Shown in pieces: positions 8,332-17,044 of a stretch of 64,000 nt of DNA; within the stretch, counting starts at the first letter, position 1, and each line of letters begins with the position of its first letter. The stretch comes from Candidatus Dormiibacterota bacterium (lineage in GTDB: Bacteria > Chloroflexota > Dormibacteria > Aeolococcales > Bog-877). The position numbers and the translations under genes are program-made. The stretch spans positions 229,134 through 293,133 of the forward strand of contig CAWDQV010000001.1 of NCBI GenBank assembly GCA_963804565.1. Reading direction: 5' to 3'. Under the pieces are notes generated by a model. That model had not been told where the DNA came from. It was given only the letters and a program-made list of their open reading frames with translations, and searched no databases.

Positions 8332-11065
8332 TCAGCTCGCGGCGCGACGCAGTGGACTGAGATCTCGCCAGTTCGGTCCGCTCTTGAGGTCCACGACCAG
8401 CGGCACTGACAGCTCGATCGCGCCCGCCATGCCCTCCGCGGCCAGCTCCGCCACAACCTCGACTTCGCTGATCGGCGCTTCGAAGACGAGCTCATCGTGA
8501 ACTTGTAGAAGCATTCGGGCTGCGCAGCCTGAGGCCCTGAGCGCCTGGGCGGTTCGGATCATCCCCAACTTCATGATGTCGGCAGCCGAGCCCTGGATCG
8601 GCATGTTGATCGCCATCCGCTCGCTCGCTTCGCGTACCTGTCGATTGCTGGAATTGATGTCGGTGAGGTAGCGCCGACGGCCCAGGATGGTGCTCACATA
8701 CCCCTGCCGTCGAGCTTCTTCGCGGACCGTCTCGAGGTACCCCTGCACTCCCGCGTAGGTGGCGAAGTAGCGCCGGATGAAGTCATCCGCGACGTCGGTG
8801 GCAATCCCCAAGTCGCGCGATAGCCCGTAGCTGGATAGGCCGTAGAGGATCCCGAAGTTCACCACCTTGGCCATCCGGCGCTGGTCCGAGCCGACCTGCT
8901 CCTGGGGCACCCCGAAGACCTGCGCTGCGGTGTCGGCGTGGATGTCGTCCCCTCGGGCAAATGACGCTCCCAGCCGTGGGTCCTGGCTGAGATGGGCGAG
9001 CACCCGCAACTCGATCTGTGAATAGTCGGCCGAGACCAGCACCCAGTCATCGGGCCCGGGGATGAACGCCGCCCGGATACGCCGACCCAATTCGGTACGG
9101 ATTGGGATGTTCTGCAGGTTGGGATCGCTAGACGAGAGCCGACCCGTCGCTGCCACCGCCTGGTTGAAGCTGGTGTGGACTCGACCGTCATCGGGGTCGA
9201 CAAGGTCCGGCAGCGCATCCACGTAGGTGCTCTTCAGCTTGGTCACCTGGCGCCACTCCAGCACCAGGCCCACGATGGCATGCTCCTCTCGCAGTAACTC
9301 CAAAGCCTGCGCATCGGTTGAGCGGCCCGTCTTGGTGCGCCTCGAACTCTTGAGCCCCAGTTCGTCGTAGAGCAGGGCGGCCAGCTGCGGCGTCGATCCC
9401 GGGCTGAAGGGCCGTCCTGCCAACCGGAACATCTCGGCCTCAAGCTCCGCGATCTGCACCGTCAATGCCGACGAGATGGCTCGAAGTTGGGCGGCATCGA
9501 GACGGACGCCCAACCCCTCCATGTCGGCCAGGATGCGGAGCACCGGCAGTTCGAGGTCTCTGAGCAGCTCTCCCGCTTCCAGCTCGCGGAGCCGAAGCTC
9601 CAGCTGCGGCCGGATGGCCGCGGCGCATGCGGCCTCTGCTCCGAACAGCTGGGCCGCCTCGGCCACACCCAAAGCCGATGGGGGTCGGGCGGCGGGCCCT
9701 TTCCCGAGCACCACGTCCCGGTCAGGCGCCCGCGGTCCACTCCACTCGCGACAGAGTGCGGCTAAGGTGGGCGTTCGGCTTCGGGAATCAGCCAGGTAGG
9801 CCGCGAGTACGCAGTCGAACGCCTCACCATCGAGGTCAGCCCCAGCCCCCCGAAGTGCCAGGACGGCCTCCTTCAACTGGTAGCTCGACTTGCCGATCCC
9901 GGGCTCCAAGAGAAGGTCCAGGAGCGGACGGAGCTGCTCCCAAGTCAGATGTCCCGGCTCCGCCGATAACACCGGGCAGTACCAGCTGCTATCGACGTCG
10001 GTGGCGACGGCAATGCCAACCACTCTCCCCTTTCGCGAGGGACCGTCGACGGCGACCTCGACGGTGAACGACCCCTTCTTGCGAAGTTGTTCTATCAACC
10101 GGGACAGATCGGCGTCGGTCACAACGACTTCGGTGGGCCGACCGGCAGCTGTGGTGGACTCGGCTTGGGCCGCTCCGCCTTCACTGATCGGGAGTCGAGC
10201 CACCAGGCTCGGCATCCCGAGCTCTTCGAGCAGAGCGGCCGCTGCCTGTCGGTCATACTCGAGAAGACGGCAGTTGGCGAGGTCCAGGGCCACTCCGGGA
10301 ACCTCCTGGACGATGGTCACCAGTTCTCGACCGAATCGGGCCAGTTCAGCATTGCCGGTTAGCGCGGTCCGCACCCTGCCCGGGGGCATCTCGTCGACGG
10401 CGGACAGCACCCCGTCCAGGGAGCCGTACTGTTGGATCAGGGCAGTGGCGCTCTTTTCACCAATCCCGGGAACTCCCGGAATGTTGTCGCTCGCGTCTCC
10501 TCGCAGTGCCTTGTAATCAATGATCCGGATCGGATCAAAGCCGAACCGCTCCCGGACCGCGGCCACGTCGTAGATCATCGGCTCGCTGGTTCCACGGCGG
10601 CTGCTCTGCACCACAGTGTGTTCGTCGACCAGCTGGACCAGGTCCATATCCCCCGAGAGGATCACCGTGTCACATCCGAAAGCTTTGGCTTGGCGGGCAA
10701 GCGTGCCCAGCACGTCGTCGGCTTCGAAGCCCGGCACCATTAGCACCGGGATGTTGAGCCGCTCGGTGATCTTCTGGCAGATCGGGACCTGGGCTATCAG
10801 CTCCTCCGGACGTCGGGTCCCGAGTGGACTTGTAGGTCGCCAGTTTCTCATCGCGAAAGGTGGGTCCCGGCGGATCGAAGGCGGCAACGGCGCAATCGAA
10901 TCCACGCGCCAGCGCCAGCAGAAGGATGGACGTGTAGCCGTAGGCGACCCGGATCGATTCGCCTCGGCGGTTGGTCATCTCGGGCAGAGCGTGGTAGGCG
11001 CGAAATGCCAAGCCGTGCGCATCGACAAGCAAGAGACGGGGTCGCCTATCCGGCTCGGCCAGCAT
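8332..11065 (-). CDS. polA: DNA polymerase I (one frameshift near 10810)
   Basis: 5'-exonuclease start LLLVDAHGLAFRAYHALP in ORF 10670-11125; FEADD, DYSQIELR, NFGILYG and QVHDEL in ORF 8332-10905. Confidence 0.95.
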
Positions 11066-11486
11066 GAGTCCAATTATCCCGGCCTGTTGCCGGAACGCCC
11101 GACCTCGGGCCACCAATGGGTTCACTTGGCGGTAGCCGGATCGGGCGACCTGCTGACCGGCCAGGAGTCTGCCGCCTGGATATCGCCTTACCTTGCGGAG
11201 TTCTGCGTCGGGCGTGCCAGTGGCGCGTAGTTCGGTGATGGCGAGGGCACCTTGTGCCCAGCGGTGCTGCGAGACGCCCCCCTGTGCAGGCTTCGGCGAC
11301 CCAGGCTGGCTACTATGGCCCCAATGGAGGCTGGTAGCCCCGTCGTCGGCTCGCCCGGAGCGCTCCTCGCCTGGGCTCGATGGGAGGCGGCCACCTGATA
11401 GGTCGGACAGTAGCTGTCGGAGATCGGCGTTCGATCGCCTTCGCTCGTGATCAAGGGCGGTGCCCGGGCGTCGTGGGCGACAACTG

Positions 11487-12689
11487 ATGCTCTTGGGCTA
11501 CGGCCGAGACGGGGCGATCCGAGGCCGCCGAGTAGCGATCACGGGAGTCGGTGCGGTGAGCTACTGCGGCGTCGGCGCCCTGGCCCTCTGGAACGGTCTG
11601 ATTGGGGCCGAACCGTGTAGTCGAGATGCGGTGCCCGACTTCGACCCGTCTCGATGGCTCAATTCCAAGGAGGCGCGTCGCCTCGACCGCTTCACCCACT
11701 TTGCCGTGGCGGCGGGTCAGGAGGCCCTCGACGACGCAGGCGCCTTGGACGCCGATCCTGAGCGTTCCGGAGTGATCTTTGGTAGTGGGGCAGGCGGATT
11801 CACGACCCTGATCGACCAAGTCCGAGTATTCGACGCGGTCGGAGCCGGGCGGGTCTCTCCCTTCCTGATTCCCGCCCTCATGGGCAATGCCGCGGCTGCC
11901 AGCCTCTCGATGCGATTTGGTTGGAAAGGTCCCTCGGAGTCGATCACCACCGCCTGCGCATCAGGAACCCACGCGGTCGGCGCAGCGGCCCGGCTCATCG
12001 CCAGTGGGCGCTGCGACGTCGTTCTCGGCGGCGCCGCCGAAGCCTCGGCGCACGAGGTTGCCGCAGCTGCCTTTCAAAATATGAAGGCTCTCTCCCCCAG
12101 TGGGAACTCGAGGCCATTTGACCGCCGACGCGACGGTTTTGTCATGAGCGAAGGCGCCGGAGCCCTGGTTCTCGAGGACCTCGATCGCGCATTGGCCCGA
12201 CGGGCCCACATCTACGCTGAGATCACAGGGGCTGCCAGTACGGCGGACGCCTACCACATCACCGCCCCGCAGCCGGATGGGGACGGCGCTCTCGGCTGCA
12301 TGCAATTGGCCCTTCTTGACGCGGAGTTAGCTCCCCAGGATGTTTCGCATGTGAACGCCCACGGGACCTCTACCCCCCTCAACGATCTGGTCGAGGCGAG
12401 GGCGCTTCACCGGCTCTTTGGCGAGGTGGTCCCTCCGGTCACGGGAAACAAGGGTGTCACCGGCCACAGCTTCGCGGCTGCTGGTGCGATCGAGGCAGTG
12501 GCGGTCGCCCTCACTTTCAAGTCCGGCGTCATTCCTCCCACTGCCGGCTTCTCCGAAGCGGACCCGGAGATTCGGCTGGACGTGGTCCATCGAAGCCCGC
12601 GGCAATGGACGCCCGGACCGGTGCTGTCAAACTCCTTCGGATTCGGCGGGCACAACGGTTGCCTGGTGCTGGTTCCACCCCCAGCCTGA
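11487..12689 (+). CDS. fabF: Beta-ketoacyl-ACP synthase II-like condensing enzyme
   Basis: Cys-His-His triad in TACASG, NAHGTST and GHS, plus NSFGFGGHN. Confidence 0.88.
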   Translation: MLLGYGRDGAIRGRRVAITGVGAVSYCGVGALALWNGLIGAEPCSRDAVPDFDPSRWLNSKEARRLDRFTHFAVAAGQEALDDAGALDADPERSGVIFGSGAGGFTTLIDQVRVFDAVGAGRVSPFLIPALMGNAAAASLSMRFGWKGPSESITTACASGTHAVGAAARLIASGRCDVVLGGAAEASAHEVAAAAFQNMKALSPSGNSRPFDRRRDGFVMSEGAGALVLEDLDRALARRAHIYAEITGAASTADAYHITAPQPDGDGALGCMQLALLDAELAPQDVSHVNAHGTSTPLNDLVEARALHRLFGEVVPPVTGNKGVTGHSFAAAGAIEAVAVALTFKSGVIPPTAGFSEADPEIRLDVVHRSPRQWTPGPVLSNSFGFGGHNGCLVLVPPPA

Positions 12690-12746
12690 CCAGTCGGCTT
12701 AGCTGCTGAGGGGGAAGTGGCACTCGCCCGCGGTCAAGCCGGTGAC

Positions 12747-13532
12747 CTAATCGCGACGGCGGGCCAGATACAGGAAGGCTGTGTAGCTCTGATCCACGTG
12801 GCCACCGTGTCCAGCCATCGCGGAGGCGATGCCTTCCAGAAGGCGCTCCAGAGCCTTTGGCTGGAGAAGCCGGTGATTTGATTGGGTCCTGAGCAGCCCC
12901 AAGAACTGGTCGGTCGAGTAGGTGGTCAACCAAGGGAACTCCTCCCGACACAGGTCGACGAAGAGACCACTCCCGACAATCTCTGGTCGGTGGTCGTCCT
13001 CCGACTCACCGGGCACGCCCGGAACCAGCTCCGGAGCCTCGCGACGGTAAACCGCCCGCACCGCCTCCTCCAGATCCCTTTCGGTCGCATCCCAAGACGG
13101 CCGATTCCAGATCAGCCCGAGGCACCCGTCCGAGCCAAGCGCTTGGTGCGCCTTCTGGAATCTCATCTCCGGGCGTAGCCAGTGCCAGGCCTGCGCTGCC
13201 GTCACCAATCGAAACGGTTCCGGCGGCAGCGGCCAATCCTCGAAGGACGATTCCACCACCTGTGTGCCTACTCTGCCGGCCGTGTTGCTGGCGGCTATCC
13301 GCGCCATCTCAGGGCTGGGTTCCAACGCAGTCACCGCCAGCCCGCGAACCGCAAGCGGCACGGTGGCGCGTCCGGTTCCGCAACCAATCTCCAGCGCGCG
13401 GTCCCCCCGCGATAGCGACGCGAACTCGACAATCCGATCGAAGAGTGCGTCCGGGTACCCGGGTCGGTATCGCTCATACAGGTCGGCCACCTCTCCGAAG
13501 ACCAGCCGCTGCTCCCGACTTTGACCGGACAC
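12747..13532 (-). CDS. Class I SAM-dependent methyltransferase
   Basis: YERYRPGYP, LEIGCGTG, AQAWHW; the start is uncertain (GTG 13532 or ATG 13625). Confidence 0.88.
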   Translation of the reverse strand: MSGQSREQRLVFGEVADLYERYRPGYPDALFDRIVEFASLSRGDRALEIGCGTGRATVPLAVRGLAVTALEPSPEMARIAASNTAGRVGTQVVESSFEDWPLPPEPFRLVTAAQAWHWLRPEMRFQKAHQALGSDGCLGLIWNRPSWDATERDLEEAVRAVYRREAPELVPGVPGESEDDHRPEIVGSGLFVDLCREEFPWLTTYSTDQFLGLLRTQSNHRLLQPKALERLLEGIASAMAGHGGHVDQSYTAFLYLARRRD

Positions 13533-13720
13533 TCGATCCTCCAAGTGGCGGACTGACCGCGATTGTCCCGCTCCGGACAGACCCACCCGCGGAGGGCCGA
13601 GATCACCCGCAACGGGGGCTATCATGGAGGAGAGATCGCGAATTCCCGGCGACTCGGTGGGCGGCCGGATCCCTCGGGGCCGCTCCCGGCGGATGCGGGA
13701 ACAGCCAAGGGTGAGGTGCA

Positions 13721-14215
13721 GTGGACGTGATCGAGATGTCGGTGGACAGCATCCGGGTCCATATGCCCAGCGGTCAGCACGTCGTGGTGCTGAAGCAAAA
13801 GGACGCGGAGCGCTTCCTGCCGATCTGGGTTGGGATGGCAGAAGCCAACGCCATCGCCCTCAAGATCACCGGCATCAACCCCGACCGGCCGCAGCCGCAC
13901 GACCTGATGGTGAATATGCTCACCATGCTCGACGTCACGGTGAAGCGGGTCGTGGTGTCGGAACTCCGGGACGACACCTTCCACGCGCGGATCATCGGCG
14001 CTCGGGACGGCAAGGAGGTCGTCTTCGACGCCCGTCCCAGCGATGCCATCGCGGTGGCGGTTAGAGTCGAGTCGCCGATCTACGTGGTTGAGGAGGTTCT
14101 AGATCAGGCGGGAGTGCTTCCCGACAGCCAGTCCGATGACGGTAGTCGCCTGGAGGTCTTCCAGCAGATGGTCAACGACATGAACCTGCCCGACCTCGAC
14201 ACCCCCGACGCCTGA
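13721..14215 (+). CDS. Bifunctional nuclease family protein (DUF151)
   Basis: LPIWVGMAEANAI, RPQPHDL, DARPSDAIAVA; GAGG RBS. Confidence 0.92.
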   Translation: MDVIEMSVDSIRVHMPSGQHVVVLKQKDAERFLPIWVGMAEANAIALKITGINPDRPQPHDLMVNMLTMLDVTVKRVVVSELRDDTFHARIIGARDGKEVVFDARPSDAIAVAVRVESPIYVVEEVLDQAGVLPDSQSDDGSRLEVFQQMVNDMNLPDLDTPDA

Positions 14216-14227
14216 CCAGCCTCGGAG

Positions 14228-14310
14228 GCCAGCATGGCGGAATGGCAGACGCGGCGGTCTCAAAAACCGTTGAGCGCAAGCTCGTGAGGGTTCGACTCCC
14301 TCTGCTGGCA
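14228..14310 (+). tRNA. tRNA-Leu (anticodon CAA)
   Basis: Acceptor stem GCCAGCA/TGCTGGC, D loop with TGG, anticodon arm GCGGT-CTCAAAA-ACCGT, long variable arm GAGC-GCAA-GCTC, T arm GAGGG-TTCGACT-CCCTC. Confidence 0.96.
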
Positions 14311-14522
14311 CCCAAGGATGCAGCGACGCCCGAGCTAGCCAGCAGACCTCGTCTCTGCGACTGACAACCGCGAGGGAGCATCCAGGTGTGCGGCTAGGTC
14401 AGCCGCGCGCCCGCGAGGCGGGCGGCGACTCTAGGCACAGGCCGCCAACCGAGCCTCCGAGCCGGACCGCTTCGCCAGCACAAACCCTCGTAACTCACGC
14501 AGAGACGCGGGCTTCTACCTCT

Positions 14523-15137
14523 ATGAGGCAGTCGGCACGCGCAGTTGCCCGGGCCATGAGTGCGGCGATCCTTTTGACGGGGGCGGTAGTGGTCCTTTCT
14601 AGCTGTGGCGTTGGCCGTCCGGCACGAGTTCATCCGCCGACCGGATCAAGCGTCACCCCCAGCCCGGTGGCCGTGTCAACTCCCTCGCCGGTAGCGAGTC
14701 CGACTCCTCCGATTCTCCCTTGCGGCGCTGTGTCGATGAGCGCGGCGATGGGCTACTCCGACTCCAGCGCAGGCCATCTCGTGTATGCGGTTGTTTTGAG
14801 CAATGCAGGGAGTCAAACTTGCACGCTGGAAGGCTACCCAACCCTGACGCTTGAGGGCGGCGACAGCCCCATCTCCACGACGCAGATCGACGGGAATGAT
14901 GGCGTCACCTCGGTAAGCACCACACCGACTCTCCTCACCATCCCGATCGGAGGATCGGTGTCCTTCGTGCTCCAGTACAGCGATGTGCCCACCGGCACCG
15001 AGTCCTGTCCGACTGCCTCCTACCTCGATGTGCAGCTGCCGGGCGGGAGCATAGCCTCCCTCGTCCCGTCAGAGATCCAGGCTTGCGGCGGTGTAATCTA
15101 CGCCTCTCCGTTCCGCGCCGGCACCTCGCCGCCGTGA
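14523..15137 (+). CDS. Putative lipoprotein with a DUF4232-like domain
   Basis: Signal peptide with lipobox LSSC, Pro/Ser/Thr linker, and a domain containing VLSNAGSQTCTLEGYPTLTL and paired Cys. Confidence 0.75.
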   Translation: MRQSARAVARAMSAAILLTGAVVVLSSCGVGRPARVHPPTGSSVTPSPVAVSTPSPVASPTPPILPCGAVSMSAAMGYSDSSAGHLVYAVVLSNAGSQTCTLEGYPTLTLEGGDSPISTTQIDGNDGVTSVSTTPTLLTIPIGGSVSFVLQYSDVPTGTESCPTASYLDVQLPGGSIASLVPSEIQACGGVIYASPFRAGTSPP

Positions 15138-15353
15138 GGTCGATCTGGCCAAACAGCAATCGAGCCCCGGCCATCGTTGAGACTCCTCAGGAGCACCAGA
15201 GCGCCGAAGAGAAGCCAACTGGGCTTCGGCTGTGAGATGCGTCGGCCGTAGCGCATTGCTCCTGGGCCTGCGCTCGGCCGATCAGCCGACAGGACCGCAT
15301 CGGCCGCGCTCTTCTCAGATCGAAGTCAGTTGCTGTCAGGGACCGCACTGCCA

Positions 15354-15416
15354 GCGGGCGAACTCAAGAACCCCGAGCGGATGCTCGCGTGGGTTCGAAG
15401 CCCTCTGCTGCCACCC
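15354..15416 (+). repeat. Degenerate direct repeat of the tRNA-Leu 3' half (att-like remnant)
   Basis: 15375-15416 matches 14272-14313 at 35 of 42 positions without gaps; upstream CTCAAGAACC resembles the anticodon loop CTCAAAAACC. Confidence 0.8.
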
Positions 15417-15486
15417 CCCATCCGACCTCAAATTCTCCAACTGGCAGCCGCAGACGCCGTCGATCGCCGCTCGCTAGGAGCCCGCT

Positions 15487-15660
15487 CTACGGATCGAGGC
15501 TCTTGCAATCCTCACAACGGGTATAGCCGCCGGTACCCGGGCGACGATCTCCCTTCGGGATATCACTTCCGGGACCGCAGTCGCTCTGGTCATGCCACCG
15601 GCGCTCGCCGGCTGGCTTTGACTCCTCGTTCGCCGAGTGGTACGGGTCCACGTAGGCCAT
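15487..15660 (-). CDS. Small hypothetical protein (57 aa) with H-x4-C...CxxC motif
   Basis: GGGAGGG RBS before ATG 15660; MAYVDPYHS...WHDQSDC...GTGGYTRCEDCKSLDP. Confidence 0.7.
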   Translation of the reverse strand: MAYVDPYHSANEESKPAGERRWHDQSDCGPGSDIPKGDRRPGTGGYTRCEDCKSLDP

Positions 15661-15920
15661 GGCAATCCCTCCCGATTCCATGAACAGTCGCGTGGCGCCA
15701 GACTACTCCCGCGCAGCACCGGGCTGAGAATTTCCTCTGCAAATCCCCAAAATGGGCCGCTGCCGCCCACTCCGTGCCCCCCAACCCGGCTGTGCGCTGA
15801 TAGCCCGGCCGAGAAGCGGCGACCCACCACGAGCCGGGCATTGAGGTGCACTCCCCAGCCGAGCTCATCAGGGCCGCCGCACTGCCGGAGCGTACCCGAA
15901 CAGCCCGCTCTACGAGATCC

Positions 15921-16028
15921 TCATCCAGCGGTGGTGCCTGAGGCTCGGGCCATGGCGACACGCGACCGATTACCGCAGCAATCGCAGTCGCACTCACACG
16001 CTCCGTCTGGGCAGTCGCATACGTCCAT
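15921..16028 (-). CDS. Cys-rich small peptide, metallothionein-like (35 aa)
   Basis: Manual translation MDVCDCPDGACECDCDCCGNRSRVAMARASGTTAG; AGGAG 6 nt upstream; sigma70-type promoter upstream; divergent from an ArsR/SmtB gene. Confidence 0.75.
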   Translation of the reverse strand: MDVCDCPDGACECDCDCCGNRSRVAMARASGTTAG

Positions 16029-16038
16029 CACTCTCTCC

Positions 16039-16104
16039 TATATCGATGAGGGTCGATGTATACTGGCGTGATGGTAACCAATACATCGACGATTGTCAAC
16101 CTAT
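16039..16104. promoter_or_regulatory. Overlapping divergent promoters with two ArsR-type operator palindromes
   Basis: Minus strand TTGACA (16099-16094)-N17-TACCAT (16076-16071); plus strand TATACT (16059-16064); palindrome TATATCGA-N6-TCGATGTA (16039-16060); perfect 10-bp inverted repeat GTCGATGTAT (16052-16061) / ATACATCGAC (16081-16090). Confidence 0.7.
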
Positions 16105-16116
16105 ACGGGGGCCGCC

Positions 16117-16479
16117 TTGACCAACTCCACTAGCACCTCCGCTAAAGCAGAGACCCCAGAGCGAACTAAAGGTTGCTGCCAGTCGGTCGCCGCGCCACTT
16201 TCAGGCGACGAGGCCGACGAGTTGGCGGGGCTCTGGAGGGCGCTCGGGGACGCGACGCGCGTGCAAATTGTTCACATCTTGGCGGCCGCCACCGCGCCGG
16301 TTTGCGTCTGCGACTTCACCGCCGCCTTCGAGCTGGGGCAACCGACCATCAGCCACCATCTCGCCAAGCTCCGCGAGGCGGGCATCGTGACCGTCACCAG
16401 GCGCGGCCTGTGGTCTTTCTACCAGCTCAATCCTGAAATGTCTGATCGCGTCAGGCTCGCAGTTCAGCTAATTCCCTGA
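16117..16479 (+). CDS. ArsR/SmtB family metalloregulator
   Basis: ALGDATRVQIV, VCVCDF helix-3 motif, QPTISHHLAKLREAGIV and an N-terminal vicinal CC; start uncertain (16093 or 16117, or 16071 if a G-run indel is corrected). Confidence 0.92.
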   Translation: MTNSTSTSAKAETPERTKGCCQSVAAPLSGDEADELAGLWRALGDATRVQIVHILAAATAPVCVCDFTAAFELGQPTISHHLAKLREAGIVTVTRRGLWSFYQLNPEMSDRVRLAVQLIP

Positions 16480-16707
16480 TCTAACGGCAGTCGCATCGGC
16501 GAGGTAGCGGCGCACGGCGACTCCGGCCCAGATGATCTCAACAACTCCAAATGGCCATGCCCCGGCTAAGAACCCGTACGCGCTGGAGAGCAGGCACCCG
16601 CCGGCGAACGCCAGGACGAACCGTGGGCGTCGGCGCTCCAAGGCGTACATGACGACCATGAAAGACACGGCTGCTGCTCCAAAGGCGGTCAAGAGCATGG
16701 ATTCCAT
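16468..16707 (-). CDS. Small membrane protein (about 3 TM), hypothetical
   Basis: MESMLLTAFGAAAVSFMVVMYALERR...SAYGFLAGAWPFGVVEIIWAGVAVRR; hydrophobic segments bounded by Arg. Confidence 0.72.
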   Translation of the reverse strand: MESMLLTAFGAAAVSFMVVMYALERRRPRFVLAFAGGCLLSSAYGFLAGAWPFGVVEIIWAGVAVRRYLADATAVRSGN

Positions 16708-17044
16708 TCTGGGCCGCCACGAGGCTGCGGGCCGGCGTCGGGCGACGTCGTGGCAGAGACTGAACCGCGAGCTCGGCGCTGCACGGGAAGTGGCAAGCAT
16801 CGGAGGCGGGATACCCACCCTCGGCTGCTGGCCCGGCAGCGCAGCGAGCACTGCTCTGACACCGTAGATGGTACCGATCATCGGTAGCGGAGTCGGCGCG
16901 ACGTTCAACTCTTGGGCGATCAGTGCGCCAGCGGACCGACAGCGCCTGCCTAGTGACGCACACTCTGCCTGACGTCTGGAGAGTTGACCGGGACGCCAGC
17001 GCATGGGCGTGCGTCACACGGGTCGACCTCTTGGAGGGAACGTC

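Follow-up and report, generated by a model that had tools for sequence, protein, structure and literature searches.

The DNA analysed here is a stretch of 64,000 nt (hereafter the window) from contig CAWDQV010000001.1 of a Candidatus Dormiibacterota bacterium. Our subject is an unannotated short open reading frame (sORF) on its minus strand that encodes a cysteine-rich peptide and lies divergent from the gene for an ArsR/SmtB-family repressor (Table 1). The alignments and genome surveys reported below are best explained by an unannotated family of Cys-rich micropeptides in Dormibacteria and other Chloroflexota, 14-37 aa in length with 5-12 Cys and the motif M-x-C-[DNE]-C-P-[CDE]-G-x-C. We propose that the window sORF is a genuine, translated gene of this family and that the family is new, metallothionein-like and predicted to chelate metals or metalloids, a proposal to which we give an even chance. 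A metallothionein-like role is the leading reading because the sORF is conserved beside ArsR orthologues and no described family was matched.

Cysteine-rich micropeptides divergent from ArsR

The window sORF is a genomic rarity that recurs at a fixed position in relatives. Within the source genome (2.43 Mb in 4 contigs, 80% complete), it is the sole ORF of at most 40 aa that is preceded by a Shine-Dalgarno (SD) sequence and contains at least 7 Cys; just one other SD-preceded ORF of that size reaches 6 Cys. For an orthologue survey, the best ArsR locus was taken from each of 30 related genomes and the divergent-strand DNA was scanned for SD-preceded ORFs of at most 40 aa with at least 4 Cys. 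Upstream DNA was present at 28 of the 30 loci (L011 and L026 end at a contig edge), and 14 of these 28, in Dormibacteria, carry a Cys-rich sORF divergent from the ArsR orthologue, the recurrence that the first-pass annotation of this DNA had proposed as a check on orthologous ArsR genes. The distance from the estimated arsR start is 63-68 nt in 12 of the 14, 53 nt at L015 and 616 nt at L024. By the identical criterion, Cys-rich sORFs occur elsewhere in these loci once per 134,644 nt. One of the 14, L014, is doubtful and better read as an in-frame, Cys-rich N-terminal extension of ArsM; at this locus (G039:C3) the ArsM frame opens with MCSCCCS... and starts ~45 codons early, a stretch that may be an sORF which has fused or degenerated, and an overlapping 19-codon GTG frame is likewise Cys-rich. 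Unpublished genomes (G004, G007, G014, G016, G021, G032 and G035, corresponding to loci L023, L024, L026-L029 and L031) enter the 14/28 count, the two contig-cut loci, the tally of ArsR orthologues (present in 40 of 41 related genomes), the phylum-wide pattern count given below and the entry for L024, whose peptide recurs identically at the public locus L061.

The peptides of Dormibacteria comprise 14-26 aa with the consensus MxCDCPCGxCPCxC(xC) (alignments A1 and A2), and those of other Chloroflexota share the same N-terminal motif in 25-37 aa with up to 12 Cys. Some members, such as L012 and L062, contain repeat expansions of the C-x-C unit; CC is absent from several (e.g., L016, L035 and L061), and others end in CC or CCC. 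Across 26 members, the 203 residues between cysteines are P (63), G (47), D (46), T (13) and S (12), followed by E (7), N (5), A (4), R (2) and one each of H, Q, V and I, with L, F, W, Y, K and M entirely missing. This composition is metallothionein-like and looks selected at the level of the peptide. The window peptide and the family display the compositional hallmarks of metallothioneins: small size, dense C-x-C and CC cysteines, and no aromatic or bulky hydrophobic residues.

At the nucleotide level, Cys is encoded by 146 TGC and 38 TGT codons, Pro and Gly each use all four of theirs, and all length differences in alignment A2 are in frame. Mean entropies at codon positions 1, 2 and 3 are 0.49, 0.25 and 0.95 over 20 unique 12-codon cores. 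There is some circularity in this figure, since a codon-level pattern supplied 14 of the 26 sequences; synonymous variation is also seen among members found via ArsR alone. Together, the third-position variation points to coding constraint, with the family conserved at the protein and codon level.

Two pattern searches extended the family beyond the ArsR orthologues. A species-wide scan for ATG-NNN-TGY-RAN-TGY-CCN-TGY-GRN-NNN-TGY, using one genome per species for 185,579 species, returned 28 loci, of which 21 are family-like and 7 are apparent chance matches in long or Cys-poor frames of Bacteroidota, Firmicutes, Pseudomonadota and others. Eighteen of the 21 adjoin ArsR and/or ars genes (7 of these repeat earlier loci), and nearly all come from metagenome-assembled genomes (MAGs) of Candidatus Dormibacterota or Chloroflexi/Chloroflexota, which the genome collection used here groups, as Dormibacteria relatives and other Chloroflexota, in one phylum. 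The only family-like match outside these taxa in that scan is L052, an Acidobacteria MAG record with a 23-aa member, MNCNCPCGPCPCPEPCPCDQPAD, that has an SD and ends 4 nt before an extracytoplasmic function (ECF) sigma factor gene. A looser phylum-wide pattern matched 33 places in 31 of 401 genomes and is only about half specific, since the reversed control pattern gives 15 matches. Of these places, 20 were inspected, with 5 judged family-like; 5 others were already known, and 8 (G354, G133, G236, G029, G069, G414, G320 and G350) fell outside the inspection.

Neither the window peptide nor its relatives resemble catalogued proteins. Pfam, metallothionein models included, returned no family for the window peptide at E<=0.1 and none at E<=1 for those 12 of the 26 members whose length allowed a scan; NCBIfam returned none for 5 peptides. 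A profile search of the PDB with the family and another of 1.84 billion protein representatives gave no matches, and the ESM Atlas gave no usable match for the peptide. Such absence from databases does not show absence in nature, because ORFs of this kind are rarely called. Across all of these libraries, no described metallothionein family was matched. Our literature search, whose coverage ended short of supplements and subscription journals, found no description of such a peptide.

Within the window sORF itself, the 35-aa frame and the seven Cys in its first 18 residues are present as originally described, at residues 4, 6, 11, 13, 15, 17 and 18, which gives the core 7 Cys per 19 residues and one CC pair (residues 17-18). 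An in-frame GTG at 16031 is an alternative start that would yield 36 aa. By comparison with the alignments, the 35-aa length is atypical and conservation is limited to the first 19 residues; the tail is without counterpart in any relative, whose sORFs end after 14-26 codons. DNA homology with the closest complete relative stops at TGCTGC, codons 17-18, and the 16-aa tail arises at this break in homology, inside the sORF. Relaxed alignment of the 275 nt 3' of the core against 7 relatives gave no significant match (z -0.48 to 2.11), and a remnant of the 5' end of a MIP channel gene behind the core is at most a hint.

The first-pass annotation had also entertained a lost base that hides a stop, which would shorten the peptide to 19 aa ending ...CDCDCCG. 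Contigs from 4 of 4 public soil runs of one study, possibly including the source sample, do not support this, and the idea was rejected: they span 15948-16007 with 0 gaps, have no inserted or deleted letters over 15400-16600, and differ in that interval only by single-nucleotide polymorphisms at 15741 and 15957, the latter synonymous and in the sORF tail. With 0 indels and neither a frameshift nor a nonsense change in the contigs of the four runs, the 35-aa frame is real in this population. A search for RNA runs that contain the locus listed none, a result that speaks neither for nor against expression.

Regulators and operon context

The divergent repressor belongs to the ArsR family. Its ORF matches Pfam HTH_5 (E 1.8e-15, 57 bits vs a cut-off of 22) and NCBIfam HTH_metalloreg NF033788 (84.8 bits vs a cut-off of 55), and it bears both the N-terminal Cys-Cys and the CVC motif noted originally. 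Among proteins of solved structure, its best match is the arsenic-responsive ArsR 6j0e_A (E 4.8e-17), a CgArsR-type protein whose ECC aligns with the N-terminal GCC of the window ArsR. From the aligned sequence, the repressor has three candidate thiolates for As(III), drawn from the N-terminal CC and/or the alpha-3 CVC. The space between arsR and the sORF is ~65 nt in all relatives. In the window, the first possible arsR start overlaps the -35 hexamer of the sORF promoter; arsR may instead begin at the second TTG or be leaderless.

The intergenic region contains several regulatory-type elements (Table 1). Both the AGGAG and the TTGACA-N17-TACCAT promoter of the first-pass annotation were recovered, the latter as the 1 site, with 10/12 matches, in a promoter scan of 15400-16300, vs a mean of 0.1 in 50 shuffles. 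Every family locus inspected has GGAG, GAGG or AGGAGG at the equivalent place, and the SD lies 5-8 nt before the start. The palindromic pattern ATCGAY-N4-RTCGAT has 1 match in the window vs 0.04 expected, and an equivalent palindrome is kept at the loci of relatives. The source genome contains 2 such sites in total; the second falls within a coding ORF and was rejected as another ArsR target, so the sORF promoter is the only one that the palindrome marks. We read the 10-nt inverted repeat around the -10 hexamer as a putative second operator element; it is also visible in pairwise alignment with L003. No intrinsic terminator-like site was found in 15400-16300.

Table 1. Positions of the sORF, the divergent repressor gene and associated elements, numbered from the first letter of the window.
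Feature	Position	Strand	Description
Cys-rich sORF	15921..16028	minus	35 codons + TGA; MDVCDCPDGACECDCDCCGNRSRVAMARASGTTAG; ATG 16028, TGA 15921-15923
sORF core, codons 1-19	15972..16028	minus	MDVCDCPDGACECDCDCCG; aligns with family consensus MxCDCPCGxCPCxC (alignments A1 and A2)
Tail, 16 codons	15924..15971	minus	NRSRVAMARASGTTAG; non-conserved, specific to the source genome
Shine-Dalgarno AGGAG	16035..16039	minus	6 nt before the sORF ATG
Palindromic operator-like site	16042..16057		ATCGATGAGGGTCGAT; ATCGAY-N4-RTCGAT; abuts the SD
Perfect 10-nt inverted repeat	16052..16090		arms 16052-16061 and 16081-16090; flanks the -10 hexamer of the sORF promoter
Sigma-70-like sORF promoter	16071..16099	minus	TTGACA (16099-16094), 17-nt spacer, TACCAT (16076-16071); consensus match only
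ArsR/SmtB-family repressor	16093..16479	plus	N-terminal Cys-Cys (GCC) and CVC motif; start TTG 16093 or TTG 16117
tRNA-Leu(CAA)	14228..14312	plus	edge of the synteny break

In relatives, the sORF opens an arsenic resistance operon. In 15 of 25 distinct ArsR-type loci, the sORF is followed by a gene for ArsI/CadI, in 7 by one for ArsM and in 2 by one for a MIP channel, while at one locus, the window, no gene follows it; the sORF is accordingly the first cistron of an ars operon in 24 of 25. Representative assignments are the ArsI/CadI of L005 (NCBIfam NF041414, 178.9 bits vs a cut-off of 116) and the ArsM of L004 (NF008823, 301.7 bits vs a cut-off of 263). A MIP channel (aquaglyceroporin) and an ArsC of low-molecular-weight phosphatase (LMWP) type usually come next in these operons. 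The ArsI/CadI proteins after the sORF in L005 and L012 have C-terminal tails with two Cys-Cys pairs (e.g., ...CCG...CC), so that the adjacent enzyme bears additional thiol clusters as well. In L008 and L009, drafts of G005 and G008, the ArsI frames are split or interrupted, and L009 contains masked letters; these may be assembly errors or pseudogenes.

A second context places the same type of peptide behind a different regulator. At five loci of other Chloroflexota (L038, L043, L064, L066 and L075), the sORF begins inside the 3' end of a merR gene (Pfam MerR), with an overlap of 1-23 nt. The sORF is followed in L038 by a MerA-like reductase at 79 nt (TIGR02053, 414 bits, below the 454 cut-off) and then a YHS protein; in L064 by a DUF302 gene at 161 nt; and in L066 by a DF-family protein at 41 nt, then CopC and a CtaG-family protein. 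L043 has a convergent cupredoxin gene and then ArsR after the sORF, and neither L043 nor L075 has a co-directional gene. G160 harbors two near-identical copies, L065 and L066. The family is associated with genes for thiophilic metals and metalloids under two unrelated sensor families, ArsR and MerR, and the metallothionein-like reading gains support because the same peptide type sits in these merR, mercury and copper loci.

Proposed function and competing readings

We propose the following sequence of events. The palindromes overlap the -10 region and the 5' untranslated region (5'UTR) of the sORF promoter, and ArsR would bind them. The ArsR cysteines would take up As(III) or a different thiophilic ion, as family knowledge suggests, and the repressor would be released; the sORF would then be transcribed and translated from its strong SD. 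The thiolate-rich peptide would chelate As(III), with three thiolates per ion, or soft metals, and buffer the free toxic species as a minimal metallothionein or gene-encoded phytochelatin analogue. In relatives, a single operon controlled by ArsR would yield the peptide along with ArsI or ArsM, ArsC and an aquaglyceroporin. In the source genome, the ars genes after the sORF would have been lost or rearranged beside the tRNA-Leu gene, leaving ArsR and a tailed peptide. We favor such a micropeptide because its composition looks peptide-selected, stand-alone copies exist and RNA structure of the attenuator type was not found in 14 folds.

A stronger version, which we hold somewhat below an even chance, is that the Chloroflexota family comprises the smallest known natural metallothionein-type chelators, nature's equivalent of engineered synthetic phytochelatins, wired into ArsR and MerR units and produced stoichiometrically with ArsI or ArsM via stop-start coupling. 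Should binding of As(III) or soft metals be confirmed, the peptides would form a new, very small class of bacterial metallothioneins, the first with a place inside ars operons and one from a phylum that only metagenomes have revealed. Gene callers miss such genes (none among the 1.84 billion representatives), so arsenic and metal resistance of soil Chloroflexota is under-annotated. The 14-20-residue cores can be synthesised, which makes direct binding tests possible, and they could serve as compact natural chelator tags.

Several observations weigh against a chelator. The distance from the sORF stop to the next start is -10 to +8 nt in 21 of the 25 ArsR-type loci as measured by script, and in L008 and L009 the N-terminus of ArsI lies by eye 2 nt after the sORF stop, its frame broken further on, which raises the count to 23 of 25; only L040 (at least 36 nt) and the window depart from this pattern. 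Junctions this tight are the signature of translational coupling, and a leader or coupling ORF would account for them just as well. Absent from 14 of 28 orthologous loci, the sORF is also dispensable, and in seven sORF-less operons (L013, L017, L018, L020, L028, L029 and L030) the palindrome and SD stand directly before arsM or arsI. With operator and SD identical in these operons, the sORF is an optional first cistron that took over the SD of the operon. Furthermore, a free alpha-peptide of 14-20 residues may not last long in a cell, the codon-entropy figure carries the circularity noted above, the window copy may be a decaying remnant, and convergence instead of homology could underlie the resemblance between the ArsR-type and MerR-type groups because their shared motif is of low complexity.

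Since the sORF heads and abuts ars operon genes in 24 of 25 loci, a leader or coupling role is a live rival and the foremost one, if unlikely. Here the act of translating the sORF would matter and not its product: ribosomes would end 1-8 nt before arsI or arsM and re-initiate, and downstream translation could be tuned by the supply of Cys-tRNA or thiols or by As(III) on the nascent chain. Beyond the tight junctions, most downstream starts are without an obvious SD of their own, the sORF-less operons make the sORF look like an inserted translational relay, and there is precedent in the Cys-responsive polycysteine attenuators of mycobacteria (bioRxiv 10.1101/834739). However, the sORF is not leaderless and has few consecutive Cys codons, and the downstream genes handle arsenic rather than cysteine metabolism. 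The stop abuts the next start, which leaves no spacer for a duplex that hides a ribosome-binding site (RBS) and no room for an attenuator hairpin; folds around 14 sORFs (leader, sORF and next start) showed no excess of structure over shuffles (z -1.93 to +1.94, mean 0.20). Sensing at the codon level also leaves the restriction to P, G, D, T and S between cysteines unexplained. Finally, the five MerR-type sORFs follow their regulator and lie 41-161 nt from the next co-directional gene or have none; with no co-directional partner in L043, L075 and the window, the sORF cannot be a leader there. Chelation and a leader or coupling role are not mutually exclusive. In a bolder variant, the nascent Cys-rich chain could sense As(III) or thiol status on the ribosome and gate translation of the downstream ars genes, which would constitute a new class of metalloid-responsive leader. 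A translational leader would in any event be the first Cys-rich one tied to a metalloid operon, and either outcome, the smallest bacterial metallothionein class or a metalloid-operon leader, is undescribed biology.

A second rival, rather improbable in our view, concerns the window copy alone: a deletion or rearrangement beside tRNA-Leu took the ars genes together with the original stop and left a decaying remnant with no present function. The window is collinear with the closest complete relative over 9727-14335 and 16034-16738, and between these blocks ~6.6 kb of the relative (sORF, MIP, ArsC, DinB-like, MarR and others) corresponds to 1.7 kb in the window (14335-16034 between the blocks), with tRNA-Leu, a DUF4232 protein and a 57/64-aa ORF. 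When the window was searched by tblastn with the ArsM, ArsI, MIP and ArsC of relatives, no ars structural gene came up, as the first-pass annotation had reported for the vicinity of the sORF, and a frameshifted or degraded ars gene behind the sORF was rejected when the same queries gave no match near 15100-16000. The source genome, at 80% completeness, yielded no ACR3, no ArsM orthologue and no ArsI above cut-off; an ArsC-like LMWP (C1:2340470) and an ArsB-family gene (C1:946866) lie far from the window. Loss or exchange of the ars genes at a variable site next to the tRNA gene is the probable course of events. If an ars operon is defined as ArsR with at least one arsenic-handling gene in the unit, 24 of 25 related loci are such operons and the window locus is not. 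The "two-gene sequestration module" first suggested thus describes the source genome and not its relatives, in which the sORF heads the operon. Decay is consistent with the end of homology inside the sORF and with the unique tail. On the other side, the copy retains an intact start codon, SD and promoter, both operator elements and all seven Cys codons, its ArsR is conserved and full-length, and the population contigs of the four runs carry no disabling change, with a stop still reached after 35 codons.

Less probable still is a peptide that serves not as a chelator but as a precursor of a ribosomally synthesised and post-translationally modified peptide (RiPP), a small iron-sulfur (Fe-S) or redox peptide, or a sulfur carrier. 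RiPP precursors can be short and Cys-rich, and no family assignment constrains the function; however, no gene for a maturase, radical-SAM enzyme, cyclodehydratase or exporter adjoins the inspected loci, whose neighbours are ars, mer and cop genes and regulators, and metal-thiolate clusters typically show the C-x-C spacing, unlike redox or Fe-S motifs of the CxxC kind.

Lastly, the probability that the sORF is a chance ORF in GC-rich intergenic DNA, or that DNA-level operator constraint alone conserves it, is close to nil: it is very short, low in complexity, unannotated and without database relatives, but it is a genome-wide outlier that recurs at the same position in half of the orthologous loci vs the low background, its amino acids are held through synonymous codon changes with in-frame length differences, and the operator lies upstream of the SD and not within the sORF.

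Returning to the metallothionein-like reading, the closest architectural parallel is the smtA-smtB locus, in which a metallothionein gene is divergent from an ArsR/SmtB repressor and the operator-promoter occupies the short intergenic region (PMC7387436). The analogy drawn in the first-pass annotation holds for this layout, with a small Cys-rich gene, a divergent ArsR/SmtB and an intergenic operator-promoter, and stops there: Pfam and NCBIfam, prokaryotic metallothionein model included, reveal no sequence kinship with SmtA, and the window family is without His ligands. Moreover, smtA is a stand-alone gene whereas the sORF of relatives is the first cistron of an ars operon, and the likely effector here is As(III), not Zn. 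SmtA is also larger, at ~55 aa vs 14-37 aa. The same source counts only two bacterial metallothioneins with a studied function as of 2020, of which MymT is one (PMC7387436). MymT of Mycobacterium tuberculosis, which binds Cu(I), is likewise small, Cys-rich, furnished with C-x-C motifs and long unannotated; none of the library searches detected similarity to it. It comprises ~53 aa. Neurospora-type fungal copper metallothioneins, of ~25 residues with C-x-C spacing and small or acidic residues between cysteines, are comparable to the sORF peptides in size and spacing, but they are eukaryotic, show no detectable homology (Pfam metallothionein families), and are not known to be operonic or controlled by ArsR or MerR.

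Two further comparisons concern gene-encoded Cys repeats. The mycobacterial polycysteine ORFs, which are leaderless, Cys-responsive attenuators (bioRxiv 10.1101/834739), share with our family the trait of an unannotated, Cys-rich first cistron. On that description, the two differ in four defining features: the mycobacterial ORFs are leaderless whereas ours have an SD and a predicted 5'UTR carrying the operator; they have consecutive Cys codons whereas ours mostly alternate as C-x-C, with one CC pair in the window and a terminal CC or CCC in some members; they need an RNA duplex that hides the next RBS whereas the sORF loci are without excess structure; and they head cysteine-metabolism operons whereas ours head ArsI/CadI, ArsM, MIP and ArsC genes or stand in mer and cop contexts. 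Phytochelatins, (gamma-Glu-Cys)n-Gly, are made by phytochelatin synthase whereas the window peptide is a ribosomal ORF with an SD and start codon. The notion of a phytochelatin mimic fits the (acidic-Cys)n-Gly pattern of the window copy and few other members, but not the family consensus, in which P, G and D prevail between the cysteines. Engineered EC20, (Glu-Cys)20-Gly, is DNA-encoded and was placed in an ArsR-controlled arsenic operon for arsenic handling in E. coli (PMC4611968). The ...CECDCDCCG of the window resembles it as a ribosomal alpha-peptide of alternating acidic residues and Cys that ends in Gly; EC20 is engineered, longer and a surface-displayed fusion, and in the natural consensus Pro and Gly outweigh Glu and Asp. 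The family also shares the slot between regulator and enzyme (L038: merR, sORF, MerA-like gene) with ArsD, MerP and MerT, to which no homology was found. These Cys-based binders of soft metals and metalloids in resistance operons are folded proteins of 70-120 aa with CxxC or CC sites.

Neighbouring genes in the window

A conserved hypothetical protein is encoded at 15487-15681 on the minus strand, 240 nt downstream of the sORF and on the same strand, with 57 aa from its probable start at 15660 or 64 from an upstream ATG. It has 7 homologues, all from Dormibacterota-type sources, in which H23, C28, C49 and C52 are invariant, a pattern suggestive of a small His-Cys3 metal site. The gene for this protein in G015 (L004/L033) lies directly after arsR on the strand of arsR; the 57-aa gene therefore accompanies this ArsR in two different arrangements.

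On the other side, a small membrane-like ORF (16468-16740, minus strand) converges on the 3' end of arsR and slightly overlaps it. Its matches are limited to a weak one in Pfam (DUF3681, E 0.012) and none in NCBIfam, and it is kept beside arsR in G012 (tblastx 16482-16738).

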